Assembly (NCBI GenBank): GCA_030390025.1
Contig: CM059441.1
Span: 13,640,001 to 13,704,000, forward strand
Length of the DNA stretch: 64,000 bases
From: Squalus acanthias
Taxonomy: Eukaryota
Reading direction: 5' to 3'
A model generated the notes under the pieces. That model saw only the letters and a list, made by a program, of their open reading frames with translations. It had not been told where the DNA came from and did no database searches. Every line of letters starts with the position of its first letter. Position 1 is the first letter of the stretch. This document shows, in pieces, positions 415-61,262 of this stretch. A program made the position numbers and the translations under genes.

Positions 415-600
415 GTGGTCTGCAGGTTGGTGGTGGTGGTACAAATGTGTTGTTCTCACTACATTCAATGACATTGTTGCCAACCATTTCATAACCTTCA
501 TTACAGCTGTAGGTGATCGTCTCCTGATGTTTGTATGTCGGTCCAAATCCTGTGACTATGCGACCATTTGTGAGCAGTTCAGGAGATTGACATCCAACAA
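415..600 (-). CDS. CCP exon type A (A1)
   Basis: tttgtcag|TT GTT GGA TGT...AGA CCA C|gtgagt; 186 nt; VGCQSPELLTNGRIVTGFGPTYKHQETITYSCNEGYEMVGNNVIECSENNTFVPPPPTCRP. Confidence 0.9.
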
Positions 601-1778
601 CTGACAAAAGAGCAAAGTTTTAGTCTCCATTAAACAATTAACTGTACTTATGATGCTGATTGAAAGTCCATTTGGCCCACGACTCATGTCCCCAACTTCA
701 TTCAAATATCATTATGCTTGTTAAGGCATCATTAAAAAACAATTAGTAAATGTCTGACTTCACTGCATTATCAACTAAATTGTTCCAAATGTTTATCATA
801 TTTTGAATTAAAGGCTCCAAGGTCTCAAATTCCCTCCCTAAACCTCCCTCACTCTATTCTCCCTCAAGACGCTCATTAAGTCTACCTCTTTGACCAAGTT
901 TTCGCTAACTTGTCCTAATATCTCCTTATATGGCTCGATGACTTGCCAGGAGAACTTGAGGGGGGTGGAGGAAATTGTTTTTCAGAGGATTAATTTTCTT
1001 TAAAGTTTCGTGTAGGTGATTGAGAGAGTATGAGATGACACCAAGGTGGGGGGGGTGGTGGGGGTGAGCATAGTGGATGATATTAGGGTTGCGCAGTAAG
1101 GGGCAGAGAAGGAGGCAGTGTAGTGGGACCAGTGGAGAACAGGTGAGAAGCGGAGTGGGGTGTGGGGGGAGAAAGGGTGATGACCAAGAGAGAATACAGT
1201 CAGTTTCCCACTGCTGAGAAACTGGCAAAAATAATGAAGTAGCCAACAAGGCCCATCCCTCATTTATGAAACCAGTGGCCCAATTCTCTTCATCGCCTGT
1301 CGTGATCTTCCATTGCCCCACTTGGTCTTCCATTGCTCCCCTTCTCTTCGTCACTTCGTGCCTTGCACCAACCGGCAGACCGCACAACAACATCGCCCTA
1401 TTCTGAGTCACCTTTTCCCCAGACTGCTTCTCCTGCCTGTTTTTTTACTACTCCTGTTCTACCTCATTCCTCCATCCATACTGCTCCCACTTTTCGTTCG
1501 GCTGGCACTTCCCACCCTCTCCTTACCGCCACTCTCCGCTCACTGCCGCTTGCACTTTTCCGTTACATGTCACCACCACCTCCTAGATCTCCAACGGCTC
1601 AACGTCACAAAACTACCACATCCTGTCTGCTAAAAATCCACTAAAACTACCACCTCCTAAACTTCCCACCACAACTCTGTTCCTTGCTCCAACACTACCA
1701 TTAGCAATAAATGAAATAACAACAGAAAACGCTGGAAAAACTCAGCAGGCCAGGCAGCATCCGTGGAGAGAGAAAGAG

Positions 1779-1815
1779 AGTTGACGTTTCAGGTCGATGA
1801 CCTTTCATCAGAACT
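1779..1815 (-). ncRNA. Minimal type I hammerhead ribozyme motif in the pLTR
   Basis: Reverse complement is AGTT-CTGATGA-A-AGGTC-ATC-GACCT-GAAA-CG-TC-AACT: core boxes, 5-bp stem II, 4-bp stem I, vestigial stem III. Confidence 0.75.
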
Positions 1816-2095
1816 GGGAAGAGCTGGAAATCAAATAGATTTAAGGCCAGGGTAAAGCTGGGAAAAGGGGGAGGGGATAAAGGAACAAAGGAGGAGATGA
1901 AGAGACATTAAGAGACATTAAGAGATATGCAAGGCTAGAGGTGGTGTTAATGTGACAGATTAAGGCTGAATGAAGTGTGAAATCTACTGGCAGAATGAAG
2001 GACAGCTGCCAGCTTCTAGGAGGAAAAAAAAAAAAGGTGGGGGGGACAAATAAAAGGGTGGATAAAATAAAATATAAATGTGATTGGAGCTGAGG

Positions 2096-2560
2096 TTATG
2101 ATCTAAAATTGTTGAACTCGATATTGAGTCCAGAGGGCTGTAGCGTGCCTAAACGAAAGATGAGGTGCTGTTCCTCGAGCTTACGCTGAGCTTCCGTGGA
2201 ACAGTGTATTAGGCCGAGGACGGTGAGGTCAGAGTGGGAGTGAAGCGGTGAATTAAAGTGACAGGCCACCGGGAGCTCGGGGTCCCCCTTACGGACTGAA
2301 CGGAGGTGTTCCGCAAAGCGGTCACCCAATCTGCGTTTGGTCTCCCCAATGTAGAGGAGTCCACATCGTGAGCAGCGAATACAGTATACTAAATTGCAGG
2401 AAGTACAAGTAAATCGCTGTTTCACCTGGAAGGGGTGTTTGGGGCCCTGGACAGTGGGAAGAGGGGAGGTATAAGGGCATGTGTTGCATCTCCTGCGCGT
2501 GCACGGGAAGGTGCCGGGCGAAGGGGAAGGGGTGCTGGGGGTGGTAGAGGAGTGGACTAG
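2096..2560 (-). pseudogene. PLE ORF C-terminus: Cys-rich linker plus GIY-YIG endonuclease (truncated)
   Basis: Open frame ...GTFPCTRRRCNTCPY...FTCTSCNLVYCIRCSRCGLLYIGETKRRLGDRFAEH...VACHF...LEEQHLIFRLGTLQPSGLN, typical of Penelope endonucleases. Confidence 0.9.
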
Positions 2561-2664
2561 GGTGTCTCTTAATGTCTCTTCATCTCCTCCTTTGTTCCTT
2601 TATCCCCTCCCCCTTTTCCCAGCTTTACCCTGGCCTTAAATCTATTTGATTTCCAGCTCTTCCC

Positions 2665-2701
2665 AGTTCTGATGAAAGGTCATCGACCTGAAACGTCAAC
2701 T
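2665..2701 (+). ncRNA. Minimal type I hammerhead ribozyme motif (inverted pLTR copy)
   Basis: agtt ctgatga a aggtc atc gacct gaaa cg tc aact; predicted cleavage after GUC (2697). Confidence 0.75.
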
Positions 2702-3079
2702 CTCTTTCTCTCTCCACGGATGCTGCCTGGCCTGCTGAGTTTTTCCAGCGTTTTCTGTTGTTATTTCGGATTTCCAGCATCTGCAGTATTTTGCTATCGT
2801 ATTAGCAATAAATGGCTTGTTGAAGGAGTAGGATTAATTTGATGAACAGCCATTTTTCATTTCACACAATATGTTCCTTTAACATGCAATGTTGAATCAA
2901 AACATTGAATAACTGTTTCCTCCCATGCCAATGTCAGGTTACCCCCTATTTTCTTAATGGAGAGGGGCTAGGAGCTGTGGAGGAGCGAAGGGATTAACGT
3001 TCCCCCTGCATTTGGTCATGACAGCGACGGCCAAATCCCATAAATGAATTTTAAAAAAGTTTAAGAAATGTTTCCTCAC

Positions 3080-3265
3080 GTGGTCTGCAGGTTGGTGGTG
3101 GTGGTACAAATGTGTTGTTCTCACTACATTCAATGACATTGTTGCCAACCATTTCATAACCTTCATTACAGCTGTAGGTGATCGTCTCCTGATGTTTGTA
3201 TGTCGGTCCAAATCCTGTGGCTATGTGGCCATTTGTGAGCAGTTCAGGAGATGGACATTCAACAA
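3080..3265 (-). CDS. CCP exon type A (A2, VEC variant, donor gtgagg)
   Basis: 186 nt, open, phase 1-1. Confidence 0.85.
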
Positions 3266-3805
3266 CTGACAAGAGAGCAATGCTTTAGTCTCCACTAAAC
3301 AATTATCTGTACTTATGATACTGATTGAAAGTCCATTTGGCCCACTGCGCCTGTTCCCATCGTCATTGAAATAACTTATGCTTGTTAAGGTATCATTAAA
3401 AAACCAATTTGTAAATGTCTGACTTCACTGCATTATCAACTAAATTGTTCCAAATATTTATCATATTTTGAATTATAGGCCCCCAAGCCCACGGCTCAAC
3501 TACACAAAACTACCACATCCTGTCTGCTAAAAATCCACTAAAACTACCACCTCCTAAACTTCCCACCACAACTCTGTTCCTTGCTCCAACACTACCATTA
3601 GCAATATGGCAGCTGATTAATGGCTTGTAGAAGGAGCAGGATTGATTTGATGTGTAGCCATTTTTCATTACACACACTATGGTCCTTTAACATGCAATGT
3701 TGAATCAAAACATTGAATAACTGTTTCTTCCCATGCCAATGTTAGGTTTCCAACTATTTTCTTACAGGTGAGAGGCTAGGTGTTGTGGAGGAGTGAAGGG
3801 TTTAA

Positions 3806-4300
3806 GGTGTCCAAGTACATAGATCACTAAAAACAGCACAGGTACAAAAGGTAAACAAAAAGGTTAATGAAATGTTGGCCTTTTTTTGAAGGGGATTGGA
3901 ATTCAAAAGTGAGGACGTGATGCTTCAATTTGTCAGATCCCTGGTCAACCCTCACTGGAGCACTGCGTTCAGTATTGGGCACTGAACCTCTGTAAAGATA
4001 TATTGGCCTTGGATGGGATATGGTGCAGATTCACCAGAATGATACCAGGGCCTAAAGCATTAAATTAAGAAGATAGGTTGCATAAACGTTGCCTATATTC
4101 CCTTAAGTTTAGAAGGTTGAGGGGTGATCTAATTGAGGTATTTTAAATGATTTAGGGATTCGATTGCGGAAATAGAGAGAAATTATTTCCCGTGGTGGAG
4201 GAATCTAAACAACGGGCGCTTCATCGTAAAATTAGAGCTAGGCCACTTAGGAATGAAATGAGGAAGCACTTTTGCCACAGAAATAGTAATGGCAATCTGG
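3806..4300 (+). mobile_element. Decayed CR1-type LINE ORF2 fragment (copies near 15373, 26970, 30425, 40148, 53595)
   Basis: Recognisable CR1 3' ORF2 nucleotide motifs (ggggattggaattcaaaagt, agattcaccagaatgataccagg, gaggggtgatctaattgagg); boundaries approximate. Confidence 0.65.
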
Positions 4301-4563
4301 AATGAAGCCCGAAATGTGTTTTTGTGACCACAAAATTAAGATATGATAAAAGGAACAAATGTATAGCATTAAAGCATTCAGCTTCCTCTGCTCATTGGCT
4401 CACTGAAAAATATTCCCATTTATTTTTTTTAAGAACAGCAAGAAAAAAAAATCAATATTGCAATGCCAAATGGGAAACATCAATCCCAACATTCAGATAT
4501 TTACATAGTTTCAACAGATTTGCAAAATGTTCCCCCTACATCTTTTGATTCCATTCTTAGGTT

Positions 4564-4880
4564 TCTTCAACAGCTCTTCCCAAACCCACAAACCCTACCA
4601 CCTAGAAGGACAAGGGCGGCAGCCGCATAGGAGCACCATCGACTCCACACTGCCCTCCAAGTCACACACCACCCTGACTTGGAAATATGTCGCTGTTCCT
4701 TTATCATCGCTGGGTCAAAATCCTGGAACTCCCTCCCTAACAGCACTGTGGGAGTACCTTCACCACATGGACTGCAGCGGTTCAAGAAGGCAGCTCACCA
4801 CCACCTGCTCAAGGGAAATTAGGGGTGGGCAATAAATGCTGGTCTTGACAGCGACGGCCACATCCCATAAACGAATAAGA
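4564..4880 (+). mobile_element. Non-LTR retrotransposon 3'-terminal fragment (copies near 16131, 27726, 31148, 40905, 60745)
   Basis: tcctggaactccctccctaacagcactgtgg...gcggttcaagaaggcagctcaccaccac...gggcaataaatgctgg, encoding a WNSLP-type LINE C-terminus; boundaries approximate. Confidence 0.65.
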
Positions 4881-4906
4881 AAAAAGTTTAAGAAACGTTT
4901 ACTCAC

Positions 4907-5092
4907 GTGGTCTGCAGGTTGGTGGTGGTGGTACAAATGTGTTGTTCTCACTACATTCAATGACATTGTTGCCAACCATTTCATAACCTTCATTACAGCT
5001 GTAGGTGATCGTCTCCTGATGTTTGTATGTCGGTCCAAGTCCTGTGACTATGTGGCCATTTGTGAGCAGTTCAGGAGATTGACATCCAACAA
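4907..5092 (-). CDS. CCP exon type A (A3)
   Basis: 186 nt, open, ag/gtgagt. Confidence 0.9.
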
Positions 5093-5829
5093 CTGACAAG
5101 AGAGCAATGCTTTAGTCTCCACTAAGAAACTAACTGTACTTATGATACTGAATGAAAGTCTATCGGGCCCACTGCGCCTGTTCCCATCTTCATCGAAATA
5201 ACATTATGCTTGTTGAGGTATCATTAAAAAACAATTAGTAAATGTCTGACTTCACTGCATTATCAACTAAATTGTTCCAAATGTTTATCATATATTGAAT
5301 TAAAGTCCCCAAGCTCTCAATTTCCCTCCCTAAACCTCCCCCACTCTATTCTCTGTAAAGACGCTCATTAAATCTACCTCTTTGACCAAGCTTTTGCTCA
5401 CCTGTCCTAATATCTCCTTATGTGGCTCGATGACTTGCTAGTAGAACTTCAGGGGGGTGGAGGAAATTCTTTTTAAAATTATTGCTATTCTTTAAAGTTT
5501 AGTGTCGGTAATTGAGAGAGTATGAGATGATACCAAGGTGCAGCGGTGGGGTGCATAGGGGATGATGTTAGGGTTGCGCAGTAAGGGGCAGAGCAATGTT
5601 TTAGTCTCCATTAAACAATTAACTGATTGAAAGTCCATTTGGTCCATGACTCATGTTCCCAACTTCATAGAAATATTATCCTTGTTAATGCATCATTAAA
5701 AACCAATTAGTAAATCTATAAAACTATACACGGTGGACGGGGGTGGGGATATAAACTAAAAACAAATCCTGAACTCGATTACAGCAGAAATAAATCAAGG
5801 GGAAAAAAGACCATCTTCTGCAGCAATTA

Positions 5830-6322
5830 CTGACGATGCCACAGTGTTCAGCTCTGTTCATAACTTCTCTGATAAAGAAGCAGCCCATCCCAGCCTACAA
5901 CACTCCGACTTGAGCTGACAAGTGGCAGGTAATATTCATGCCACATTAGTGCCCGGTAACGACTATCTCAAAAAGGAGACAGCCCAGCCACCTCCCCTTG
6001 CCCTTCAATGGCATTACATTTGCTGACTCCCCCACCATCAACATCTTGAGGGTCACCATTGACCAGACGCTGAACTAGACCGGCTATATCAACACTGTGG
6101 CTACAAGAGCAGGGTAGAGATTGGGTACTCTGCGGCACGTGGACTACTTCCTGGCACCTGAAAGCCTTTCCACCATCTACAAGGCTCAAGTCAGCACTTT
6201 GATGGAATACTCACCACTCGCCTGGATGGGTGCAACCACAACAACATTCAAGAAGCTCAACAATATCCAGGACTTGATTGGTACCCTTGCCACTGAACTC
6301 AATATCCACCCCCTCCATCACC
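5830..6322 (+). mobile_element. Decayed LINE reverse transcriptase fragment (copies near 17410, 28991, 32413, 42025, 45900, 49405, 56890, 61880)
   Basis: IYKAQVSTLMEYSPLAWMG; the longer copy at 61885 shows AGVAQG..L.PTIFSYFINDL...RLFADD RT motifs. Confidence 0.8.
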
Positions 6323-7094
6323 AAAATTTGCATATAAATCAGAACTGTTAGTAGAGTTGCTCAAGGATACGACTGTACCACACATGAATATTTAACATTA
6401 ACTATTAATTACCTATGTTTCAGCATCCCAACTACTGTATGAGATGTAATCACCTGACTTTATTCCCACAGGAAGCTTGTGTTGCAGTTTTACACACTAG
6501 CAACTGGGTGAAAGGGAGGTTTCCAACCCTCTGGGAGGGGCCCGGAGACTCCAGGAATTAAAGATTAATCTCCTGGACACTGCAGCGAGCAACCCAGGAG
6601 GAAAATTACAGGGGCATTAAAAAAATAAGAGTATTTTGCTGCCATTCCACATTCCTAGTGCTCTCCATAGGGAAGTGTTGGACGTATCCCGATACTAGGT
6701 GGAAGATTATCACGAGATGGCCAGGGAAAAATTAAATTCAGTTCGAGATCTGAACAGACGGTAGATCAAAAGCTTCAGGGATTAATCTCAGTCAGGTCAC
6801 GGGCACAGCACACTGATGAACCAATACATGCAATTCAGAGCAGGGCATGGGCATTCTTCTCTCTGACGTTTCCTTTCTGCCCCCTCCCAATAATCCTCGC
6901 AACACCCTAATCAACTTATCTCAGCTGCATTTTGTTTTTAGGTGAGCAGGTAAACAGAAAGAGAGATGAATACAGAAGAAGCCAGGGTGAACTGTGAACA
7001 CTGGAAGGTTCGTTGCTTCCCACTTAAGGTACAGCACACGTCACAGGATTGTAAAATCTGAAACACTAAATAAAAGGGAGGAGAATTACAAAGT

Positions 7095-7285
7095 ATTTAT
7101 AGGCCCTTCGGCCCAACAGGTCCATGCCGGTGTTTATGCTCTACACGAGTCTCCTCCCACCCTTCTTCATCTAACCCCATCAACATATCCTTCTATTCCT
7201 TTCTCCCTCATGTGTTTATCTAACTTCCCCTGCAATGCATCTATGCTATTCGCCTCAACTATGCCTTCGGGTAGCGAGTTCCACC
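7095..7285 (-). mobile_element. CR1-type LINE/SINE 3' tail fragment (copies near 18675, 30250, 33672)
   Basis: aggcccttcggcccaacaggtccatgcc...ttcgcctcaact...gagttccac resembles an antisense CR1 tail; boundaries approximate. Confidence 0.5.
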
Positions 7286-7794
7286 TACTTATTTAAACAA
7301 TAGCACAAATTAATTGGGAATTAAGTTTTATTAATTAAGTAAACTTTGTTGACTAATTTCTTTCCCCAAACAAAAACATCCATCACTTTAGTTACAGCTC
7401 AATTTGGCAATTACAGCACAGCAACTGCACCAGATGCAAATTCCTGTGGAATTGATATTGAAAGTATTAATCCAAGTACCATTTACAGTTTGACTGAAAA
7501 AGCACATTTTAAAAACAAAATCTACAATTGTTACTTTTCTTCCTTCATTAGTAATCAAACTATTTATCACCATGGGAATGGAAATCATTTAATAAATTGA
7601 AAAGAAAATGCCAAGCAGCCCATGAACCCTATTCCTTCTCCTGGCCATGTACAATCGCACCATTATAATTCTGACAACCACCATTCACTGTAATGCTAAC
7701 TGGGGTACTTTATAAAACATTATACAATATTTTAGAAGTTGACATAATTGTTTGGCACAGAAAGTGAAGCCAGACATTTGGAGCCCTAACTTAC

Positions 7795-7868
7795 ATTCAC
7801 AGGTTGGGGCCTGGCCATCCCAGCCATCAGCTGTACACAACCGAGAGTTCCGACCCACCATCCGGTAC
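7795..7868 (-). CDS. Split CCP type C, second half (unit 1)
   Basis: tttctccag|G TAC CGG...TGT GAA T|gtaagt; 74 nt; YRMVGRNSRLCTADGWDGQAPTCE; not in the ORF track. Confidence 0.9.
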
Positions 7869-8486
7869 CTGGAGAAACAGAGACATGCCAGTAAGGGTCC
7901 TGGGTTACATTAGCACAGGGGCACATTGAAAATCAAGACATGTTATACTATTACTGGACAAAGTGTTGGTCGGAAATCATATGGAAGAGCAAATGTAATT
8001 CAGGTCAGCTCATCTTAGGAAGGATATTGGTGCTTCTTGGCTCACAGAGCTGAATCACAGTTTTGAGGAACCAGCAGGCACAAACCTCCAAAGTTGAACT
8101 CAAATTATGGATCTACAGATCAATCATAAATTAAATATTGCAATTGTTCTCGAAGAACCAAAGTGACAGGAAGTTTGACCAGTGGGTGAAAGTTCACAGC
8201 ATCAATAGCCCAGAATTTAGCACTAATTGGACAATTACATGACTGGTGAGAGTAGAATGTGTAAAACTACTACCCACAGTGTTACATTCAGTTACAAGCC
8301 TTACACAGTAGCCTCATGGACTGCTGTCTTCAGAAATGTAAACAACAGGTAATGGTTGTCTTGTGTTGGGTAAGTGGCATTGTTGTACCAACATGGAGAT
8401 GCTGTGGACTGCTGTCACCTCATTCACAACATTTTTAGAATAAACCTTCACCAAACTATTCAGCAATCTGAGTAAGGACAACTCAC

Positions 8487-8583
8487 CCTTCATTACAATA
8501 AAAAGTAACTTTGCTTCCAAATGTAGTATTTGGTGCCCCATAATACCCATTCAGAATCTGTCCTGGATTACCACAGTTCAATG
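8487..8583 (-). CDS. Split CCP type C, first half (unit 1)
   Basis: ttctatctag|CA TTG AAC TGT...AAT GAA GG|gtgagt; 97 nt; LNCGNPGQILNGYYGAPNTTFGSKVTFYCNEG. Confidence 0.9.
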
Positions 8584-8944
8584 CTAGATAGAAAAAATGG
8601 AAAAGGTAGAAATATTACAAAATACCAGGAGCTAAAGTGACTTTTTTTAATATATTTTTTTCAATGTAATTCACAGTATTTTGGAATTAATATATGAAAC
8701 TGCTACCAACTTCACCTAATTCTGGAATTCATTTTGAAAATGTTGGCAAAATATATACAAGATTCATTCAAAGGTGCAATACCCCTCATTAATAGGCCTC
8801 TGCCTTCAATCTCCCTCTGCATGCATCTAGGAGAATCTTTACCAGCAGTCCAAAACACAAGGGCCGAGAAATTCAGTTGTGGAGCCTCTTAATCCTCCAA
8901 CATGGCAGGCAGGAAGCATCTCAATGTGATCGGGCAACAAATAT

Positions 8945-9172
8945 CTCATCTTTGGAATTCTCTACCCCATAGGGCTCTGGATGCTGAGTCGTTGAGTATA
9001 TTCAAGGCTGAGATTGATAGATTTTTGGATTCCAGGGGAATCAAGGGATATGGGGGATCAGGCGGGAAAGTGGAGTTGAGGTCGAAGATCAGCCATGATC
9101 TTGTTGAATAGCAGAACAGACTCGAGGGGCCGTATGGCCTACTCCTGCTCCTAATTCTTATGTTCTTATGTT
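8945..9172 (+). mobile_element. CR1-type LINE 3' end (copies near 20525, 35522)
   Basis: LWNSLPHRALDAESLSIFKAEIDRFL..GIKGYG followed by 3' UTR and (cttatgtt)n tail. Confidence 0.8.
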
Positions 9173-9884
9173 CCCACTACATATAGCAACATTCTTGTAG
9201 GCCAATTCATAACCTGCATTCCAGCTGCAGCTGATCATCTCCAGGTATCTGATCCATCACACTAAGCAGATGAGAGATACCATCACGGGTATCCTGCTGC
9301 TGCTCCAGCATCTTTAGCTTGAAGACAGACCTTCTCACCTTGTGCCTCAGTCCTGTGGTGTTTTAGGAAGTGTTCCTAAATGCCACTTTGGGTTTAACTT
9401 TCTCTATTAATAACACAAGGGAAATGTCCACTCACTATTTCACCATGTATTCCAGATGAAAAGACAGTGTGTGCGTGTCTACAAAGTTAGAATGTGATAT
9501 AAACTGGTACGTACAACATTACAGCTGTAAGGGTTCCCTTTGCACAATTGGTCATTAAAAAAGACTGAAATTGGAGGACTTTTAAAACGCTTTTGGAGTG
9601 AAAAGGAACAAGACAGAAATGGATATGTCAATGTCTACTGGGAAAAATCCAAGTCAACATTCAGATAATTTTTATATATTTAGAAAAGGTTTAACCCACA
9701 TCTTTTTATTTCTCAAATTTAAGAAATCGTTACCCACATAGATTGCAATAGATGCCTGGTAAACCTGCAACACATGTTGGCATAGGAATAGAATATTACA
9801 GATGAGAGGACATATTGTAGTTCGTGCACATTAGTGACAGCATACTTGAAATATTGAATTAATTTTTATACCAACTAGCACACT

Positions 9885-10320
9885 ATTGATGTTGGAGTGC
9901 CCCAAAGTTCCGTCTGATGCCCCTTTTTCTCATCAATACACTGTTCCTTGGTGACAACATTTGTAGGCATGGATTCAATTTCCACATGTATGCTAACAAC
10001 ATCCATTACTACTTCTCCACCACCATGCTCGACTCCGCAATCACCACTGTTGTGCTCGGCTGCTTATCTGACATTAAGTCATAGTTAAGGAAGATCTTCC
10101 TTCAATTTATCTGCAAGACTGAAGCCATTCTGTTTGGCTCTTGCCAAAGAATCAGCACCTTACCTGAATTTCATTCTCCTCCCTGACTACCACTCTCTTA
10201 TGCATCAGAAAGAGCACTTATTTCCACTTCAGTAACGTTACCTACTTCTACCTCAGCACCACCACCACTGAAATATTTCTCCAGGCTTTTGTCACCTCCT
10301 CAATATCGATTATTTCACTC
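9885..10320 (+). mobile_element. Highly decayed L2-like RT fragment (copies near 21456, 36462)
   Basis: ggagtgccccaa...ttccacatgtatgctaacaac resemble GVPQ/HMYADD remnants. Confidence 0.5.
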
Positions 10321-10907
10321 AAGCTTGATCAGCAAATTAATGCAACAGTTTCCTATGTGCTGCACTAACACAAGTAATTCAGTGGGGCACAGACACAGAT
10401 CTAGTTGGATCTTAAAACGAGAAAGGAAGAGGAGGGAGGATGAGCATGATTTAACTATGGATCATTACCTATGGATTATGGTGACTATATTTAGCAATTC
10501 ACACTCATTAATATATAGCAATTCAACTATGGCTGAAAACATCCGATTATACTGTGCCAAATCACGATTTCTATTCTTTTAACAATGATATAAACGTAGT
10601 TGACATTTTCAGGGTTGTGTTTCAAAATACAAACTTGTACCATTCTGTGAACAAATGGCAAAAATGTAGAATTTAAAAAAAATTTTTGGAAGAAAACCTC
10701 CCCATCAAGTTGGCTTCAGCATCTCTGAGCGAATGAAGAAAAAAAGGGGTTTCCACTCCTGATCACGAACCATTACTTCCAGCTTAAGGCTAAGATACTG
10801 AAGGTTGCTTGAGCTGAGAGAACTGCACTCCAGCACAAGTCACTTCCTTCAGGAGAGGATGGACAAAGTGAATTAATAGAGAAAATAAAGTTACCCTCAT
10901 CACTTAC

Positions 10908-48804: not shown

Positions 48805-50945
48805 CTGACAAAAGAGCAATGTTTCAGTCTCCATTAAACAATTAACTGTACTTATGATACTGATTGAAAGTCCATTTGGCCCACGACTCATGTCCCCAAC
48901 TTCATTCAAATATCGTTATGCTTCTTAAGGCATCATTAAATACCAATTAGTAAATCTCCGATAGAACTATACACGGTCGTGGCGGGGGGATATAAACTAA
49001 AAACAAGTCCTGAATTCCATTCCATTACATAAGCAATAAATCAAGGGGCAAAAAAGACCAACTTCTACAGCAATTACAAAATCCTCCAGAATAATATTTG
49101 TTGCACTACGATAATCAGATAATTCAAAATTAACACATTTCACCTTGATGAATGGGAATTCTTATCATTTTCAGAGAATAAACTCAGCAGTTAAATCAAC
49201 AAGATCATGCAGTGTAATAATTCTACAATAATTGTCGGGAAGACAAAATGCTTCGTTTGTATTAACAATCTATTCTATATCATTGCTCTGGCAACATGGA
49301 TTAGAAACCATATGCAGATTACACACCATCAAAGTAAAAACATTACTGCCAATGGGGTCAAAGCAAAACCCTCCAATAGCTGGAGTCAAATCTGCTGCAC
49401 AGAAAGATGGTCATGGTTGTTGGAGGCCAATCATCAAAGCACAAGGATATCACTGCAGGAGTTGCTCAGGGAAACAACCTCAACCCAACCATCTTCAGCT
49501 ACTTTATTAATGACCTTCTCTCTGTCATAAGGTCAGGAATGAGACTGTTTGCTGACGATTCCAGTGTTCGGCTCTATTCATAACTTCTCTGATAAAGAAG
49601 CAGCCCATCCCAGCCTACAACACTCCGACTTGAGCTGACAAGTGGCAGGTAACATTCATGCCACATTAGTGCCAGGTAATGACTATCTGAAAAAAGAGAA
49701 AGCCCAGCCACCTCCCCTTGACCTTCAGTGGCATTACTTTTGCTGAATCCACCGCCATCAACATCTTGAGGGTCACCATTGACAAGCTGAACTAGACCTG
49801 CTATACCAACACTGTGGCTACAAGAGCAGGGCAGAGATTGGGTACTCTGCAGCACGTGTACTACTTCCTGTCACCTGAAAGCCTTTCCACCATCTACAAG
49901 GCTCAAATCAGCACTTTGATGGAATACTCACCACTCGCCTGGATGGGTACAACCACAACAACATTCAAGAAGCTCAACAATATCCAGGGCTTGATTGGCA
50001 CCCTTGCCACTGAACTCAAACTCCACCCCCTCCATCACCGGTTCATTGTGGCTGGGGTATGCACAATCTACACGATACACTGCAACTACTCACCAAGGCT
50101 GTCTCAACAGCACTGCCCTCCCATGTGACCTCTATACCAAGAAGGACAAGAGCAACAATGTTGTGGGAATACAATCATCTCCAAGACACACTCCATTCTA
50201 ACTTGGTAATCACTGCCTAGATTGGAAACTAAAAATATTAAAATCTAAGAGTATATTGTACCCTTGTACCTAGGAAGGGAACTATTTGTTGTGTGGTGAT
50301 GTAGAACACCTCTAAGCTAACTGGTGCCAGGTAAAACTGGAACACATGGTACCTCGGGAAGCGGGTCAGCCTGCAAATGTGTAGTTCAGGCACAGTAACA
50401 GGAATGTACTTGTAATTGTGGTTACTTTTCAATAATCAGCAGATCGTTAGTGGGAGAATCATTGGGGGCCATTCCTAATCTAGCCTGGCGGGAAACCTAG
50501 AAGATCGTATCAGCCACCCATTTTAAACCCCACCTGATTTTACATTCAGGGTTGTCAAAATACAAACTTGTACCATTTTGTGCACAAAAAATGAAAATGT
50601 AGAATTTTAACATTTTTTTCATGAAGAAAACCTCCCCATCAAGTTGGCTTCAGCATCTCCGAGTGAATGAAGAAAAAAGTGGTTCCCACTCCTGATCACT
50701 AACCATTAGTTCCAGCTTAAGGCTTGTTTACTCTAATTGAAGAAACAATCAGGAGTCAGTACGGTGGATCCTATGGTTAAGTTTCATGCCAACATTCACT
50801 GTTCAAACTCTAAGAACGGCCTCTTGGGTGAGATACTGAAGGTTGCTTGCGCTGAGAGAACTGCACTCCAGCACAAGTCACTTCCTTTAGCAGAGGATGG
50901 ACAAAGTGAATTAGTAGAGAAAGTAAAGTTACCCTCATCACTTAC

Positions 50946-51137
50946 GTTCACAAATGGCCTGTAATGGTGTCCAAGTTGAATCAACCTGACAGGTAACAGA
51001 TGTTGAATTTTTGTCTTTCAGTGTGTAGCCCGTATAACAACTGTAAGTAACTTCAGTACCCACAACAAATGAGGTCCGAGAAATTAATTCCTCAGTTGGT
51101 GAGCCATTTTCCAATTCTGGAAGCTTGCCACAGGAGC
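50946..51137 (-). CDS. CCP exon type B (B6)
   Basis: 192 nt, same as B5. Confidence 0.9.
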
Positions 51138-52123
51138 CTGTAAACATAAGGAGATCAAAATTGTGACTGGCGAAATCTAGCAGAGTGTGCAAAAATAAAA
51201 TTAATTGTGAAGCTTGAATATGAGGTGGATTATGTACAGTACATCAAACAGTTCACAATCGCAGAGGGTTTACACAGAATCAGTGGATAAAGCTATTCTG
51301 AGCTAAGAATACATTAGGCAGTATTAGTGGACGGACGTTTAATACTCCTCTGTCCACATTTATGAAGTAAATTCTGTTTGTTTATGGAAATTTATGTTTA
51401 TGTAACATTGTATAATGTGGCAAACTCACTAACAGTGCACTAAATCTTCCACTTCTGTGCTCCTGGTGGATGCTGGGAGGATACATCAGGAAATTGTGCC
51501 CATGATTTTGCATCCATTAATTTTAAGAAGCATTACATTTATGGTGAAGTATTGCAATGTGGAAAGTGGTGGTGTTGCTGGTGACGGGCGGTGGGTATCC
51601 TGAGGGCACCAAAGAGGAGCAGACAGCTCAGGGGAGTTGACGAGTTCTTCAGATCAGGAGGCCAAGTGGACCGCCTGATATTGTGGCAGCCCAGAACTGG
51701 CCGCCTGCATTGGTGGGGCTTGTACGGCAGAGATAGCCCACTGTTACAATGCAAAGGAGGCCAGGCCGCCTGCCACGACTCCTGAGCGGACGGTCGCACG
51801 TACTGCCTGCCAGCCACCGGAATTCCACTCGGGTGGTGGGGGGGTGGGGGTGGAATTCACCCCTGTATGAGCGTTTATGACCAGACATGATAAAAGGGGA
51901 CAATGTGTGGCGTTAAAGCATTAAGTTTCCTCTGCTCATTGGGTCACAGAATGTATTCCAATTTCATTTTTCAAAACTGCAAGAAAAAAAATCAATGTGC
52001 CAACCAATGCCAAGTGGGAAAAATCAATCCCAACATTCAGGGATTAACATAGTTTCAACAGATTGCAATAGGTCCACCCACATCTTTAGATTCTATTCTC
52101 AAGTTTAAGGAATGGTTACTCAC

Positions 52124-52309
52124 GTGGTCTGCAGGTTGGTGGTGATGGTACAAATGTGTCGTTCTCACTACATTCAATGACACTGTTGCCAACCATTTCA
52201 TAACCTTCATTACAGCTGTAGGTGATCGTCTCCTGATGTTTGTATGTCGGTCCAAATCCTGTGACTATGTGGCCATTTGTGAGCAGTTCAGGAGATTGAC
52301 ATCCAACAA
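52124..52309 (-). CDS. CCP exon type A (A17)
   Basis: 186 nt, open. Confidence 0.9.
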
Positions 52310-55303
52310 CTGACAAGAGAGCAAAGTTTTAGTCTTCACTAAGAAACTAACTGTACTTATGATACTGAATGAAAGTCTATCGGGCCCACTGCGCCTGTTC
52401 CCATCTTCATCGAAATAACATTATGCTTGTTGAGGAATCATTAAAAATCAATTAGTAAATGTCTGACTTCACTGTATTCTCAACTAAATTGTTCCAACTG
52501 TGTATCATATTTTGAATTATAGGCCCCTAAGCTTTCAAATTCCCTCCCTAAACTTCGCCCCACTCTATCTTCCTTAAAGACGCTCACTAAAATCTACCTC
52601 TTCGAAGAAGCTTTTGGTCACCTGTCTTAATATCTCCTTATGTAGCTCGATGACTTGCCAGTAGAACCTGAGGGGGGTGGAGGAAATTGTTTTCTAAAGG
52701 TTTAATTTTCTTTAAAGTTTAGTGTGGGTGATGGAGAGCGAGTATGATAACAAGGGGGAGGCGGAGGGAGGGGGGGGGGTGCATATGGGATGATATTAGG
52801 GTTGTGCAGTCAGGGGCAGAGAAGGAGGCAGTGTAGTAGGACCAGTGGAGAACAGGTGAGAAGCGGAGTGGGGTGTTGGGGGAGAAAGGGTGATGACCAA
52901 GAGAGAATACTGTCAGTTTCCCACTGCTGAGAAACTGGCAAAAATAATGAAGTAGCCAACAAGGCCCATCCCTCATTTATGAAACCAGTGGCCCAATTCT
53001 CTTCATCGCCTGTCGTGATCTTCCATTGCCCCACTTGGTCTTCCATTGCTCCCCTTCTCTTCGTCACTTCGTGCCTTGCACCAACCGGCAGACCGCACAA
53101 CAACATTGCCCTATTCTGAGTCACCTTTTCCCCAGCCTGCTTCTCCTGCCTGTTTTCTTGCTACTCCTGTTCTACCTCATTCCTCCATCCATACTGCTCC
53201 CACTTTTCGTTCGGCTGGCACTTCCCACCCTCTCCTTACGTCCACTTTCCACTCACTGCCACTTGCACTTTTCCTTTACAAGTCACCTCCACCTCCTAGA
53301 TCTCCCACAGCTCAACTTCACAAAACTACCACATCCTGTCTGCTAAAAATTCATGAAAACTACCACCTCCTAAACTTCCCACCACAACTCTGCTCCCTGC
53401 TCCAACATTACCATTAGCAATATGGCTTGTAGAAGGAGCAGGATTGATTTGATGAACAGCCATCTTTCATTTCACACACGATGTTCCTTTAACATGCAAT
53501 GTTAAATCAAAACATTGAATAATTGTTGCCTCCCTTGCCAACTATTTTCTTTATGGTGAGAGGCTAGGAGCTGTGGAGGAGCGAAGGCATTAAGGTGTCC
53601 AAGTACATAGATCACTGATAACTAGTGCACAGGTACAAAAGGTAAACAAAGAGGTTCACAAAATGTTGGCCTTTATTTCAAGGGGATTGGAATTCAAAAG
53701 TGAGGACGTGATGCTTCAATTTTACAGATCCTTGGCCAACCCTCACTGGAGCACTGCGATCAGTTTTGGGCACTGAACCTCTGTAAAGATATATTGGCCT
53801 TGGAAGGGATATGGTGCAGATTCACCAGAATATCAGGGCCTAAAGCATTAAATTAAGATAGCTTGCATAAATGTTGCCTCTATTCCCGTCAGTTTAGAAG
53901 GTTGACCCGTGATCTTATTGATGATTTTTTAAATGATTTAGGGATTCAAAAGGGTAAATAGAGGGAAATTATTTCCCGTGGTGGTGGAATTTAAACAATG
54001 GGTGCATCAATTAGAGCTGGGCCAGTTAGGAATGAAATGAGGAGGCACCTTTTCCACAGAAATAGTAAATAGTAAATCTGGAACTCAGCCCTATATGTGT
54101 GTTTGTGACCACAAAATTAAGACATGATAAAAGGAACAAATGTATGGCATTAAAGCATTCAGCTTCCTCTGCTCATTGGCTCACTGAAAAATATTCCCCT
54201 TTTTTTTTTGAAGAAAAAATAAATCAATGAGCGAATGCCAAATGGGAAAAATCAATCCCAACATTCAGATATTTACATAGTTTCAACAGGTTTGCAAAAT
54301 GCTCCCCCTACATCTTTTGATTCCATTCTCAAGTTTCTTCAACAGCACTTCCCAAACCCACAACCTCTACCACCAAGAGGGGCAAGAGCAGCAGGTGCCA
54401 TCAGCTCCTAGTTCCCCTCCACAATCTACACGATACACTGCAACCACTCACCAAGGCTGTCTCAACAGCACTGCCCTCCCATGTGACCTCTATACCAAGA
54501 AGGACAAGAGCAACAATGTTGTGGGAATACCATCATCTCCAAGACACACTCCATTCTAACTTGGTAATCGCTGCCTAGATTGGAAACTAAAAATATTAAA
54601 ATCTAAGAGTATATTGTACCCTTGTACCTGGGAAGGGAACTATTTGTTGTGTGGTGATGAAGAACACCTCTAAGCTAACTGGTGCCAGGTAAAACTGGAA
54701 CACATGGTACCTCGGGAAGCGGGTCAGCCTGCAAATGTGTACTTCAGGCACAGTAACAGGAATGTACTTGTAATTGTGGTTACTTGTCAATAATCAGCAG
54801 ATCGTTAGTGGGAGAATCATTGGGGGCCATTCCTAATCTAGCCTGGCGGGAAACCTAGAAGATCGTATCAGCCACCCATTTTAAACCCCACCTGATTTTA
54901 CATTCAGGGTTGTCAAAATACAAACTTGTACCATTTTGTGCACAAAAAATGAAAATGTAGAATTTTAACATTGTTTTCATGAAGAAAACCTCCCCATCAA
55001 GTTGGCTTCAGCATCTCCGAGTGAATGAAGAAAAAAGTGGTTCCCACTCCTGATCACTAACCATTAGTTCCAGCTTAAGGCTTGTTTACTCTAATTGAAG
55101 AAACAATCAGGAGTCAGTACGATGGATCCTATGGTTAAGTTTCATGTCAACATTCACTGTTCAAACTCTAACAACGGCCTCTTGGGTGATATACTGAAGG
55201 TTGCTTGCGCTGAGAGAACTGCACTCCAGCACAAGTCACTTCCTTTAGGAGAGGATGCACAAAGTGAATTAGTAGAGAAAATAAAGTTACCCGAATCACT
55301 TAC

Positions 55304-55495
55304 GTTCACAAATGGCCTGTAATGGTGTCCAAGTTGAATCAACCTGACAGGTAATAGAGGTTGAATTTTTGTCTTTCAGTCTGTAGCCCGTATAACAACT
55401 GTAATTAACTTCAGTACCAACAGCAAATGAGGTCCGAGAAATTAATTCCTCAGTTGGTGAGCCATTTTCCAATTCTGGAAGTTTGCCACAGGAAC
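55304..55495 (-). CDS. CCP exon type B (B7)
   Basis: 192 nt, open; closest to B4. Confidence 0.88.
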
Positions 55496-56102
55496 CTTTA
55501 AACATAAGGAGACAAAATTGTGCAAAAATAAAATTAAGTGTGAAGCTTGAATATGAGGTGGATTATGTACAGTACATCAAACAGTTCACAATCGCAGAGA
55601 GTTTACACAGAATCAGTGGACAAAGATATTCTGAGCTAAGAATACATTTGGTAGTATTAGTGGACGGGCGTTTAATACTCCTCTGTCCACATTTATGAGG
55701 TAAGTTCTGTTTGTTTATGGAAATTTATGTTTATGTAACATTGTATAATGTGGTAAACTCACTAACAGTGCACTAAACCTTCCACTTCTGTGCTCCTGTC
55801 GGATGCTGGGAGGACACATCAGGAAATTGTGTCCATTATTTTGCATCCATTAATTTTAAGAAGAATTACATTTACGGTGAAGTATTGCAATGTGCAAAGC
55901 GGTGGTGTTGCTGGTGACGGGGGACAGTATCCTGAGGGCACATTGATTTGTTTTTCTTGCAGTTTAAAAAAATGAAATGTGCCAATACCAACTGGGAAAA
56001 ATCAATCCCAACATTCAGGCGCTAACATAGTTTCAACAGATTGCAAAAAGCTCCACCCACATCCTTTGATTCCATTCTCAAGTTTAAGGAATGGTTACTC
56101 AC

Positions 56103-56288
56103 GTGGTCTGCAGGTTGGTGGTGATGGTACAAATGTGTTGTTCTCACTACATTCAATGACATTGTTGCCAACCATTTCATAACCTTCATTACAGCTGTAG
56201 GTGATCGTCTCCTGATGTTTGTATGTCGGTCCAAATCCTGTGACTATGCGACCATTTGTGGGCAGTTCAGGAGATTGACATCCAACAA
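56103..56288 (-). CDS. CCP exon type A (A18)
   Basis: 186 nt, open. Confidence 0.9.
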
Positions 56289-58429
56289 CTGACAAAAGAG
56301 CAATGTTTCAGTCTCCATTAAACAATTAACTGTACTTATGATACTGATTGAAAGTCCATTTGGCCCACGACTCATGTCCCCAACTTCATTCAAATATCGT
56401 TATGCTTCTTAAGGCATCATTAAATACCAATTAGTAAATCTCCGATAGAACTATACACGGTCGTGGCGGGGGGATATAAACTAAAAACAAGTCCTGAATT
56501 CCATTCCATTACATAAGCAATAAATCAAGGGGCAAAAAAGACCAACTTCTACAGCAATTACAAAATCCTCCAGAATAATATTTGTTGCACTACGATAATC
56601 AGATAATTCAAAATTAACACATTTCACCTTGATGAATGGGAATTCTTATCATTTTCAGAGAATAAACTCAGCAGTTAAATCAACAAGATCATGCAGTGTA
56701 ATAATTCTACAATAATTGTCGGGAAGACAAAATGCTTCGTTTGTATTAACAATCTATTCTATATCATTGCTCTGGCAACATGGATTAGAAACCATATGCA
56801 GATTACACACCATCAAAGTAAAAACATTACTGCCAATGGGGTCAAAGCAAAACCCTCCAATAGCTGGAGTCAAATCTGCTGCACAGAAAGATGGTCATGG
56901 TTGTTGGAGGCCAATCATCACAGCACCAGGATATCACTGCAGGAGTTGCTCAGGGAAACAACCTCAACCCAACCATCTTCAGCTACTTTATTAATGACCT
57001 TCTCTCTGTCATAAGGTCAGGAATGAGACTGTTTGCTGACGATTCCAGTGTTCGGCTCTATTCATAACTTCTCTGATAAAGAAGCAGCCCATCCCAGCCT
57101 ACAACACTCCGACTTGAGCTGACAAGTGGCAGGTAACATTCATGCCACATTAGTGCCAGGTAACGACTATCTGAAAAAAGAGAAAGCCCAGCCACCTCCC
57201 CTTGACCTTCAGTGGCATTACTTTTGCTGAATCCACCGCCATCAACATCTTGAGGGTCACCATTGACAAGCTGAACTAGACCTGCTATACCAACACTGTG
57301 GCTACAAGAGCAGGGCAGAGATTGGGTACTCTGCGGCACGTGGACTACTTCCTGTCACCTGAAAGCCTTTCCACCATCTACAAGGCTCAAATCAGCACTT
57401 TGATGGAATACTCACCACTCGCCTGGATGGGTACAACCACAACAACATTCAAGAAGCTCAACAATATCCAGGGCTTGATCGGCACCCTTACCACTGAACT
57501 CAATATCCACCCCCTCCATCACCGGTTCATTGTGGCTGGGGTATGCACAATCTACACGATACACTGCAACTACTCACCAAGGCTGTCTCAACAGCACTGC
57601 CCTCCCATGTGACCTCTATACCAAGAAGGACAAGAGCAACAATGTTGTGGGAATACAATCATCTCCAAGACACACTCCATTCTAACTTGGTAATCACTGC
57701 CTAGATTGGAAACTAAAAATATTATAATCTAAGAGTATATTGTACCCTTGTACCTAGGAAGGGAACTATTTGTTGTGTGGTGATGTAGAACACCTCTAAG
57801 CTAACTGGTGCCAGGTAAAACTGGAACACATGGTACCTCGGGAAGCGGGTCAGCCTGCAAATGTGTAGTTCAGGCACAGTAACAGGAATGTACTTGTAAT
57901 TGTGGTTACTTTTCAATAATCAGCAGATCGTCAGTGGGAGAATCATTGGGGGCCATTCCTAATCTAGCCTGGCGGGAAACTTAGAAGATCGTATCAGCCA
58001 CCCATTTTAAACCCCACCTGATTTTACATTCAGGGTTGTCAAAATACAAACTTGTACCATTTTGTGCACAAAAAATGAAAATGTAGAATTTTAACATTTT
58101 TTTCATGGAGAAAACCTCCCCATCAAGTTGGCTTCAGCATCTCCGAGTGAATGAAGAAAAAAGTGGTTCCCACTCCTGATCACTAACCATTAGTTCCAGC
58201 TTAAGGCTTGTTTACTCTAATTGAAGAAACAATCAGGAGTCAGTACGATGGATCCTATGGTTAAGTTTCATGCCAACATTCACTGTTCAAACTCTAAGAA
58301 CGGCCTCTTGGGTGAGATACTGAAGGTTGCTTGCGCTGAGAGAACTGCACTCCAGCACAAGTCACTTCCTTTAGGAGAGGATGGACAAAGTGAATTAGTA
58401 GAGAAAATAAAGTTACCCTCATCACTTAC

Positions 58430-58621
58430 GTTCACAAATGGCCTGTAATGGTGTCCAAGTTGAATCAACCTGACAGGTAATAGAGGTTGAATTTTCGTCT
58501 TTCAGTGTGTAGCCCGTATAACAACTGTAATTAACTTCAGTACCCACAACAAATGAGGTCCGAGAAATTAATTCCTCAGTTGGTGAGCCATTTTCCAATT
58601 GTGGAAACTTGCCACAGGAAC
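58430..58621 (-). CDS. CCP exon type B (B8)
   Basis: 192 nt, open. Confidence 0.88.
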
Positions 58622-59231
58622 CTTTAAACATAAGGAGATCAACATTGTGACTGGCGAAACCTAGCACAGTGTGCAAAAATAAAATGAAGTGTGAAGCTTG
58701 AATATGAGGTGGATTATGTACAGTACATCAAACAGTTCACAATCGCAGAGGGTTTACACAGAATCAGTGGACAAAGCTATTCTGAGCTAAGAATATATTT
58801 GGTAGTATTAGTGGATGGACGTTTAATACTCCTCTGTCCACATTTATGAGGTAAGTTCTGTTTATTTATGTAAATTTATGTTTATGTAACATTGTATAAT
58901 GTGGCAAACTCACTAACACTGCACTAAATCTTCCACTTCTGTGCTCCTGGCGGATGTTGGGAGGACACATCAGGAAATTGTGCCCATTATTTTGCATCCA
59001 TTAATTTTAAGAAGAATTACATTTACGGTGAAGTATTGCAATGTGGAAAGTGGTGGTGTTGCTGGTGATGGGGGACAGTATCCTGAGGGCACATTGATTT
59101 GTTTTTCTTGCAGTTTAAAAAATGAAATGTGCTAATACCCACTGGGAAAAATCAATCCCAACATTCAGGCGTTAACATAGTCCACCCACATCTTTTGATT
59201 CCATTTTCAAGTTAAAGGAATGGTTACTCAC

Positions 59232-59417
59232 GTGGTCTGCAGATTGGTGGCGATGGTACAAATGTGTCGTTCTCACTACATTCAATGACACTGTTGCCAA
59301 CCATTTCATAACCTTCATTACAGCTGTAGGTGATCGTCTCCTGATGTTTGTATGCCGGTCCAAATCCTGTGACTATGTGACCATTTGTGAGCAGTCCAGG
59401 AGATTGACATCCAACAA
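59232..59417 (-). CDS. CCP exon type A (A19)
   Basis: 186 nt, open, among the most divergent A copies. Confidence 0.88.
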
Positions 59418-61076
59418 CTGACAAGAGAGCAATGCTTTAGTCTCCACTAAGAAACTAACTGTACTTATGATACTGAATGAAAGTCTATCGGGCCCACTGC
59501 GCCTGTTCCCATCTTCATCGAAATATCATTATGCTTGTTAAGGCATCATTAAAAAACAATTAGTAAATGTCTGACTTCACTGCATTATCAACTAAATTGT
59601 TCCAAATGTTTATCATATTTTGAATTAAAGGCCCCAAGCTCTCAATTTCCCTCCCTAAACCTCCCCCACTCTATTCTCCGTAAAGACGCTCATTAAATCT
59701 ACCTGTTTAAACAGGCTTTTGCTCACTTGTCCTAATATCTCCTCATGTGGCTCGATGACTTGCAAGTAGAACTTGAGGGGGGAGTGGAGGAAATTCTTTT
59801 TAAAATTATTAATTTTCTTTAAAATTTAGTGTAGGTGATTGAGCGAGTATGAGATGACACCAAGGTGGGGGGGTGGGGGGTGGGGAGCATAGTGGATGAT
59901 ATTAAGGTTGTGCAGTAAGGGGCAGAGAAGGAGGCAGGGGTATTGGGACCAGTGGAGAATAGGTGAGAAGCGAAGTGGGGTGTGGGGGGGAGAAAGGGTG
60001 ATGACCAAGAGAGAATACAGTCAGTTTCCCACTGCTGAGAAACTGGCAAAAATAATTAAGTAGCCAACAAGGCCCATCCCTCATTTATGAAACCAGTGGC
60101 CCAATTCTCTTCATCGCCTCTCGTGATCTTCCATTGCCCCACTTGGTCTTTCATTGCTCCCCTTCTCTTCGTCACTTTGTGCCTTGCACCAACCAGCAGG
60201 CCGCACAACAACATCGCCCTATTCTGAGTCACCTTTTCCCCAGCCTGCTTCTCCTGCCTGTTTTCTTGCTACTCCTGTTCTACCTCATTCCTCCATTCAT
60301 ACTGCTCCCACTTTTCGTTCAGCTGGCACTTCCCACCCTCTCCTTACCGCCACTCTCCACTCACTGCCACTTACACTTTACACCTCCACCTCCTAGATCT
60401 CCAATGGCTCAACTTTACAAAACTAACACTTCCTGTCTGCTAAAATTCCACGAAAACTACCACCTCCTAAACTTCCCAGCACTCACCAAAACTCTGCTCC
60501 CTGCTCTAACACTAGCATTAGCAATAAACAGTTGATTAATGGCGTGTGGAAGGAGCAGGATTGATTTGATGAATAGCCATTTTTCATTTCACACAATATG
60601 TTCCTTTAACATGCAATGTTAACTGTTTCCTCGCATGCCAATGTTAGGTTCCCAACTATTTTCTTAATGGTGTGAGGCTAGGAGCTGTAGAGGAGCGAAG
60701 GGATTAATGATCCCCCTACATCTTTTGATTCGATTCTCAAGTTTCTTTGACAGCACCTCTCAAACCCACAACCTCTGCCAACTAGAAGGACAAGAGCCCC
60801 AGGCGCCTGCACCTCCAAGTTCCCCTCCAAGTCACACACCATCTTGACTTGGAAATATGTCACCGTTCCTTCATCATCACTGGATCAAAACCCTGGAACA
60901 CCCTCCCTAACAGCACTGTGGGAATACCTTCACCACATGGACTGCAGCGGTTCAAGAAGGTGAATCACCACTACCTTCTCAAGGGAAATTGGGGATGGGC
61001 AATAAATGCTGGTCATGCCAGTGATGGCCACATCCCCTAAACAAATACGATAAGAGTTTGAGAAATGTTTACTCAC

Positions 61077-61262
61077 ATGGTCTGCAGGTTGGTGGTGATG
61101 GTACAAATGTGTTGTTCTCACTACATTCAATGACACTGCTGCCAACCATTTCGTAACCTTCATTGCAGCTGTAGGTGATCGTCTCCTGATGTTTGTATGT
61201 CGGTCCAAATCCTGTGACTATGCGACCATTTGCGAGCAGTTCAGGAGATTGACATCCAACAA
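61077..61262 (-). CDS. CCP exon type A (A20)
   Basis: 186 nt, open, ends CCA T|gtgagt. Confidence 0.88.

Follow-up and report, generated by a model that had tools for sequence, protein, structure and literature searches.

Background

Human complement receptor 1 (CR1, CD35) is a type I membrane protein of complement control protein (CCP) modules, encoded in the cluster of regulators of complement activation (RCA) and grown by intragenic segmental duplication, and its length is usually explained by repeated active sites. CD46 (MCP), Crry, Xenopus aRCA3 and chicken CREM end in a transmembrane (TM) segment and a short tail, preceded in CD46 by an O-glycosylated serine/threonine/proline-rich (STP) spacer, and a second CCP split over two exons is typical of RCA genes. 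In this study, we report that a stretch of 64,000 nucleotides of the Squalus acanthias genome (3.7 Gb; contig CM059441.1, here C17, positions 13,640,001-13,704,000; hereafter the window) is the middle of one gene, which carries 85 intact CCP modules in one frame to a TM exon, about twice the number in the longest human CR1 allele. The reading that we favour, by a modest degree of confidence, is that the gene would encode a type I membrane complement receptor or regulator in which one or two CCP1-4 heads stand on a glycosylated CCP stalk.

Human CR1 alleles have 23, 30, 37 or 44 CCPs (PMC10518620) and a repeat of 18 kb (PMC9235356), and CD46 homologues have 4-8 CCPs (PMC7963485). In complexes with C3b whose structures have been solved, CCPi-iii are enough for decay acceleration, and cofactor activity involves binding by CCPiii-iv (PMC4868954); the third CCP is involved in both activities (PMC4868954, PMC6683126). 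The smallest regulatory unit is three consecutive CCPs, and three of the four long homologous repeats of CR1 carry a CCP1-3 active site (PMC6683126).

One gene with 85 intact CCP modules

The array consists of tandem CCP (Sushi) modules with four cysteines plus a tryptophan or phenylalanine. On the minus strand, from 61262 to 415, the window holds 20 A exons (186 nt), 8 B exons (192 nt) and three C modules, each split into exons of 97 and 74 nt (C1 and C2; Table 1). All 34 exons have AG/GT ends and are stop-free, giving 5,769 nt or 1,923 aa, and the counts given in a preliminary description of the window were recovered exactly. A and B score above the Pfam Sushi cut-off, and the C1 half alone reaches 18.3 (cut-off 20.7). 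Among the duplicated blocks, the longest pairs share about 95-99% identity over exons and introns together. The preliminary description had recognised only three module types, which is right for the live ones, but it overlooked a further, dead type (D) and A-like fragments; the window contains eight dead CCP remnants, five of D and three A-like. Its six-module B-C-A-A-A-A unit stands as a B-C-A pattern and not as a strict length, since the 3' units read B-C-A5, B-C-A4 and B-C-A6.

The sequence examined covered C17:13.14-14.16 Mb and the entire unplaced contig C3396. As had been stated, the array continues past both window ends; it spans C17 from a 500-N assembly gap at 13,864,517 (5' side) down to 13,617,470, and is followed by linker, TM and tail exons, so that the 3' end of the gene has a type I TM architecture with a short tail. 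The 85 intact modules after the gap comprise 50 A, 20 B, 14 C and 1 D, which makes the earlier estimate of gene size about threefold too low. When broken exons are skipped, 102 exons add up to 15,929 nt, or 5,308 aa, in one frame with a single terminal stop and 110 N-glycan sequons; one A exon has a GC donor. The earlier statement that all exons are intact is correct within the window and does not extend to the whole gene, which has two frameshifted A' exons and one C module with a deleted second exon elsewhere.

No signal-peptide (SP), TM or tail match, and no stop exon between units, was found inside the array from the gap to the TM exon, the TM/tail stretch had one full-length match in the genome search, and all 20 array-type B exons lie within this locus. 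Taken together, these observations speak against a series of several small genes.

The 30-nt linker exon also has two internal copies, at C17:13,751,940 and 13,625,742 (minus strand), which are in frame, keep intact splice sites and each stand before a frameshifted A' exon. Judged by eye, these copies resemble the linkers of other sharks more closely than the terminal copy does, and they may serve as alternative exits towards the TM exon.

The missing 5' end

The unplaced contig C3396 (309,681 bp) holds, in all, several B-C-D-A units and three exons of signal-peptide type, and it ends in the order SP-B-C-D-A-D-A-A-A-B-C-D-A-D, without a TM exon. The SP, B and C exons of this end are best or joint-best matches to the N-terminus of the shark orthologue P0001 (57, 76, 75 and 92%), and over 2.8 kb its D/A repeats share 96.7% identity with the ones immediately past the gap. 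From these similarities C3396 likely belongs in the gap at C17:13,864,517, and its end, a signal peptide plus 13 modules with two B-C-D-A heads, is likely the 5' end of the gene. The whole gene would then have about 98 modules, plus whatever the gap conceals, a figure that depends on this inferred join.

On the plus strand, C17:13,248,351-13,359,054 contains about 22 CCP exons 97-98% like the C3396 end, with a B-type exon of another kind in front. This copy, for which no matching SP or TM was found, would be a chimeric inverted duplicate or a misassembly.

The repeated unit lacks a live CCP3-type exon

CCP1-4 of CD46, Crry and CR1 line up in register with the first four modules of P0001, B-C-D-A, which makes B the CCP1-type, C the CCP2-type, D the CCP3-type and A the CCP4-type module; CD46 and Crry also share the second CCP split over two exons. 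The CCP1-2-3-4 unit occurs in register in P0001 and in C3396, whose two B-C-D-A units would belong to this gene if the join holds, and no intact unit of this kind was found inside the array. Of the 16 D copies past the gap, one is intact and 15 are dead. All 15 dead copies lack the AG acceptor and have a common stop codon, and the longer ones also have a common 1-nt insertion; such shared lesions suggest that D was lost once, before the expansion. The other broken material comprises 13 A-like fragments, two A' exons with a 4-nt duplication and one C with a deletion in its second exon, bringing the broken exons or remnants after the gap to 31.

With the CCP3-type exon dead and three consecutive CCPs as the minimum, a B-C-A unit should not form the usual regulatory site, as judged from mammalian structures. 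By this analogy the repeat should not be an active unit of the CR1 kind, and it probably serves as a stalk below N-terminal CCP1-4 heads.

The comparison with CR1, drawn in the preliminary description, is not supported at the functional level: the CCP1-3 site is intact in three CR1 repeats, whereas D is dead in 15/15 copies of the shark array. In place of the 7-module repeats of CR1, the shark units are irregular, B-A and B-C-A1-6, and the modules number at least 85. Assignment to CR1 by repeat structure was rejected, as there are no 7-CCP long homologous repeats and no intact CCP1-3 in the repeats. The gene resembles CD46 in its TM segment and short tail but has, in place of the STP region, only a 10-residue linker exon and the CCP stalk, and with at least 85 CCPs it does not have the CD46 plan of four CCPs then STP. 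Nor is it of the C4BP alpha type, secreted with a C-terminal oligomerisation helix, since it ends in a TM segment and tail.

Selection on the array exons

The core array set consisted of 94 live exons (48 A, 20 B, 13 C1 and 13 C2), which retain their splice sites throughout and contain 90 distinct variants, 26 synonymous and 64 not. Stops or losses of cysteine or tryptophan account for 0 of the 90, against 8.4 expected (P=1.5e-4); an apparent 'Q25*' variant was a by-product of splitting a two-step codon and no real stop. From the flanking introns, with 17 frame-breaking indels per 150 substitutions, about 10 frameshift events were expected in the exons and one was found (P=4e-4), or two if the upstream broken C is counted (P ~0.002). 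This flank count excluded rows below 85% identity; the rows retained were 46 and 22 of 48 (A), 18 and 10 of 20 (B), 10 and 13 of 13 (C1) and all (C2). Fold and frame are conserved and surface residues are drifting, which fits a structural spacer. The preliminary description had allowed that recency alone might account for the intact exons; the depletion of stops, cysteine and tryptophan losses and frameshifts answers that concern and indicates that selection keeps the frame and the cysteines.

Proposed architecture and its weighing

In the architecture that we moderately favour, putative C3b/C4b-binding CCP1-4 heads would sit at the tip, with the predicted N-glycosylated array below as a stalk that holds the working tip far from the cell. 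Units without CCP3 would be unable to form the usual regulatory site and would act as spacers. Once a single event had killed D, unequal crossing-over of phase-1/phase-1 exons would have enlarged the array; broken modules would be skipped in splicing, and the two internal linker exons may yield shorter isoforms. At 3.6 nm per module the modelled contour would be about 300 nm for 85 modules and about 350 nm for 98, and the real chain would bend.

Several observations weigh against this architecture. Three same-species runs, which we presume by guess to be RNA, gave no long transcript of the array, and the sole spliced joint listed in them (B to C1) belongs to a neighbouring paralogue. No unique overlap of the C3396 ends with the gap edges was found to place the 5' end across the gap, and a 97-98% similar copy of its 5' part lies at C17:13.25-13.36 Mb. 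The ratio of nonsynonymous to synonymous variation (pN/pS) is 0.73 overall, not significantly below 1 (P=0.11; 0.42 with transition bias), and 1.16 for B, from 24 variants. The two frameshifted A' exons keep AG/GT, and their inclusion would bring a stop at residue 2,139 or 5,166; one C module has a deleted second exon; and B and C were copied 20 and 14 times, which a pure spacer would not need.

One of the presumed RNA runs (X12) gave a single 207-nt contig of depth 2 on an array-type A exon, with 10 differences, whose match to the genome stops at the acceptor; this stretch is 0-10 letters away from array A exons and 21 from any other CCP exon at its nearest. The B-C1 joint seen in runs X12 and X22 was rejected as support for the array, since all five differing letters match the neighbouring C1 at 13,591,767 and none of the 14 array C1 exons. 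The absence of any listed joint or piece on the linker, TM and tail region in these runs is uninformative either way.

Alternative explanations

An unlikely reading, to which several features nevertheless lend some weight, is that the repeat is a multivalent binding surface, in which B-C(-A) units offer weak C3b/C4b or microbial-adhesin sites, copied for avidity or as a decoy; the CR1 analogy of the preliminary description carries this implication. The intact B and C copies are modules of the CCP1 and CCP2 types, CCPi-ii contacts C3b in the solved complexes (PMC4868954), and the pN/pS of B is compatible with relaxed or diversifying change, but that ratio comes from just 24 variants. The death of every CCP3-type exon in the array, given the three-CCP minimum, speaks against it, as does the fact that other sharks filled the region with C-only or A-only runs, fitting length over module identity.

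We consider it improbable that, in an otherwise functional gene, the giant protein is rarely or never made, with most array exons skipped or an early linker exit taken, and that the array is mainly runaway tandem duplication. Every module is phase-symmetric and hence skippable, the database isoforms of orthologues differ by whole modules, each in-frame internal linker exon stands before a frameshifted A', and the 31 broken exons or remnants accompany a pN/pS near 1. The depletion of stops, cysteine and tryptophan losses and frameshifts across the 94 live exons nonetheless requires most of them to be translated, and their splice sites are kept.

The copies are about 97-99% identical, which bears out the recent expansion previously proposed. 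Part of the length might be an assembly artefact. The core array consists of two tandem halves, of 31 and 49 modules, collinear in blocks of 7-24 kb, with 97-100% identity per 2 kb and identical runs of up to 2.8 kb. If the halves were two haplotypes placed end to end, the alleles would have 36 or 54 modules after the gap, the latter being the window's half plus 5 upstream modules. We judge this to be a poor prospect as well. The halves differ by 1.6-2.9% over aligned blocks, like short-range duplicates in the window, and their junction near C17:13,741,344-355 is gap-free and joins unrelated sequences via about 12 shared bases, a configuration that would need read support in an overlap assembler and favours a real duplication. 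A DNA run from another sample covers 30/30 bins of one unit, a result that carries no copy number, and the TM and tail exons are present at about 96% in a related species. An artefact of this kind is in any case compatible with the proposed mechanism of heads on a stalk.

That the array is a young pseudogene or a fragment of a gene without its heads, the C3396 signal peptide coming from another copy, is very unlikely, for although no signal peptide lies between the gap and the TM exon and the C3396 join is inferred, no second copy of the TM/tail was found in the genome, 7 shark models conserve this TM/tail, and the frame is open over 5,308 codons with a selection signal.

Orthologues in other sharks and comparison with other long CCP proteins

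The closest proteins to the array are all from cartilaginous fish, in protein searches limited to entries of at most 5,000 aa, a ceiling that excluded any longer database protein. Of the 25 proteins tested, TM similarity assigns 7 to the same gene (scores 63-112; others at most 39). The tail of P0001 (SP-B-C-D-A9-D-C-A-B-C-TM), whose 17 CCPs occupy the whole ectodomain, matches the TM exon of the gene best. The orthologues are automatic gene models, several without an N-terminus, and they include models labelled 'SVEP1-like' (XP_067863592.1, XP_067913345.1, XP_043572603.1, XP_048409358.2 and XP_072336371.1), which are the same gene by TM/tail similarity and use the same B, C, D and A modules, with a D-less A-B-C unit adjacent to the membrane in two. 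They differ in having 17-37 modules and in what was expanded: A in Heptranchias (B-C-D-A9-D-C-A-B-C, 17 modules), ABC and then C in Heterodontus ((B-C-D-A)2-D-C-(A-B-C)4-C15, 36-37 modules), and only C in the others. The Stegostoma and Scyliorhinus models have 25 and 21 C, and P0005 has 35 modules, nearly all C; P0230 and P0235 have 29 and 10 modules. SVEP1/polydom identity was rejected, vWA, EGF and pentraxin being absent from the Pfam list of P0001, and the SVEP1-like label looks wrong, since the module typing leaves no room for the other domains of SVEP1.

In a CCP module tree (57 columns, some redundant rows left out) the array modules group with shark modules, in keeping with the earlier claim of an expansion independent of the CR1 repeats; the deep forks are unresolved and leave orthology to mammalian genes, CR1 included, undecided. 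In Heptranchias and Heterodontus, it is the B nearest the membrane that joins array B in this tree (98/99), and the N-terminal B of both falls elsewhere, which suggests that the D-less stalk unit is old and that lineages amplified different parts. The expansion had also been called lineage-specific; this exact array is recent, but long repeats of the same gene occur in models from several sharks. P0124, a fragmentary model from Pristiophorus japonicus, has 19 A modules of the array's A subtype, 97% mutually identical, a shared or parallel expansion.

Sauropsid 'CR1' models are likewise very long CCP-rich TM proteins (curlew XP_074019626.1, 4,106 aa; Pogona, 2,859 aa), but with about 52-54 and 42 CCPs, respectively, about 29% identity and unrelated tails. 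Models with 40-50 or more CCPs are already in databases, and the highest counts among the 235 proteins compared were 61 (an SVEP1-like mollusc model) and 52 (the curlew CR1 model). The gene and shark RCA clusters are undescribed in the literature listings searched, which left most subscription papers outside and so give no proof of absence; the extracts of PMC7768046, PMC9235356 and PMC7963485 do not mention the flanking genes or shark RCA genes.

A broader proposal, which we advance tentatively and with less confidence than the architecture itself, is that this is an undescribed shark RCA receptor whose stalk has repeatedly been lengthened from different CCP modules, to about 100 here, with reach itself selected. 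If so, the protein would exceed 6,000 aa with a contour of about 350 nm, the longest RCA protein found, module skipping and a choice of three linker exits would tune its length, and the selected trait would be reach rather than the number of active sites. In contrast to CR1, this sister lineage appears to build a longer CCP chain while discarding the module needed for activity, with different modules used in different sharks, which would offer a natural experiment on whether it matters to a complement receptor how far from the membrane it reaches. The comparison also places the CCP1-4 RCA unit and a PFKFB2-linked cluster in cartilaginous fish, with orthologues that sit in databases under the SVEP1-like label.

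The RCA cluster, its neighbours and feature coordinates

Human RCA genes lie between PFKFB2 and PLXNA2. Many B-C-D-A CCP paralogues occur at C17:13.22-14.05 Mb, a PFKFB gene lies at C17 14.15 Mb, about 95 kb past the first signal peptide of the cluster (2/2 tested exons match PFKFB2 best), and a class-A plexin lies on the other side at C17:12.75-12.80 Mb. Typing of the plexin below class A was unsuccessful, and an A2 assignment was not reached. By gene content and order, the locus reads as the shark RCA cluster between PFKFB2 and a class-A plexin, and the RCA identity and PFKFB2 linkage envisaged in the preliminary description are borne out.

An intact neighbouring gene at C17:13,600,488-13,555,832 (minus strand; SP-B-C-D-A-A-C-D-TM-tail) matches shark 'C4BPA-like' models, and its B-C1 splice is the one visible in runs X12 and X22. 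Two plus-strand exons, C17:13,444,190-369 and 13,531,693-857, match the C-terminal, likely coiled-coil, tail of P0155, and genes with such exons may, on this resemblance, be secreted C4BP-like oligomerising members. Five paralogue signal-peptide exons (C17:13,501,554, 13,600,488, 13,985,367 and 14,051,069; C3396:2,179) are 97-100% identical, and the CCP exons of the same paralogues are widely divergent, which suggests gene conversion or strong constraint.

Table 1. Coordinates of the gene's features (window positions as start..end; contig positions prefixed C17)
Feature	Position	Strand	Remark
Whole window	1..64000	-	middle of one multi-exon gene
Dead D remnant, longer form	63667..63832	-	acceptor lost, stops, 1-nt insertion; just beyond 415..61262
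A exon (CCP4-type)	61077..61262	-	
A exon	59232..59417	-	
B exon (CCP1-type)	58430..58621	-	
A exon	56103..56288	-	
B exon	55304..55495	-	
A exon	52124..52309	-	
B exon	50946..51137	-	
A exon	48619..48804	-	
B exon	47441..47632	-	
A exon	45114..45299	-	
B exon	43576..43767	-	
A exon	41249..41434	-	
A exon	38669..38854	-	
B exon	37501..37692	-	
Dead A-like remnant	35746..35819	-	74 nt, 78% to A
C1 exon (first half, CCP2-type module)	35064..35160	-	
C2 exon (second half, CCP2-type module)	34372..34445	-	
Dead D remnant (CCP3-type)	33204..33291	-	acceptor lost, stop codon, 3' half missing
A exon	31491..31676	-	
Dead D remnant	29782..29869	-	
A exon	28069..28254	-	
A exon	26242..26427	-	
A exon	24668..24853	-	
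A exon	23650..23835	-	
B exon	22479..22670	-	
Dead A-like remnant	20740..20813	-	
C1 exon	20067..20163	-	
C2 exon	19375..19448	-	
Dead D remnant	18207..18294	-	
A exon	16474..16659	-	
A exon	14646..14831	-	
A exon	13085..13270	-	
A exon	12068..12253	-	
B exon	10908..11099	-	
Dead A-like remnant	9169..9242	-	continuing into high-copy repeat
C1 exon	8487..8583	-	
C2 exon	7795..7868	-	
Dead D remnant	6626..6713	-	
A exon	4907..5092	-	
A exon	3080..3265	-	
A exon	415..600	-	
Linker exon, 30 nt (10 residues), before TM	C17:13,611,338-309	-	located by reading the sequence; homology search gave no match
TM exon	C17:13,608,660-579	-	78% identical to TM of shark protein P0001
Tail exon with stop codon	C17:13,608,253-157	-	

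Elsewhere in the genome, C1:126,687,120-126,710,992 has CCP matches in open frames of up to 978 aa with many CCPs per exon, and this locus is probably SVEP1. Within the window, the intron between the last two A exons contains, by eye, two copies of a short repeat in opposite orientation (1720-1800 and 2660-2790), which we take to resemble a shark short interspersed nuclear element.

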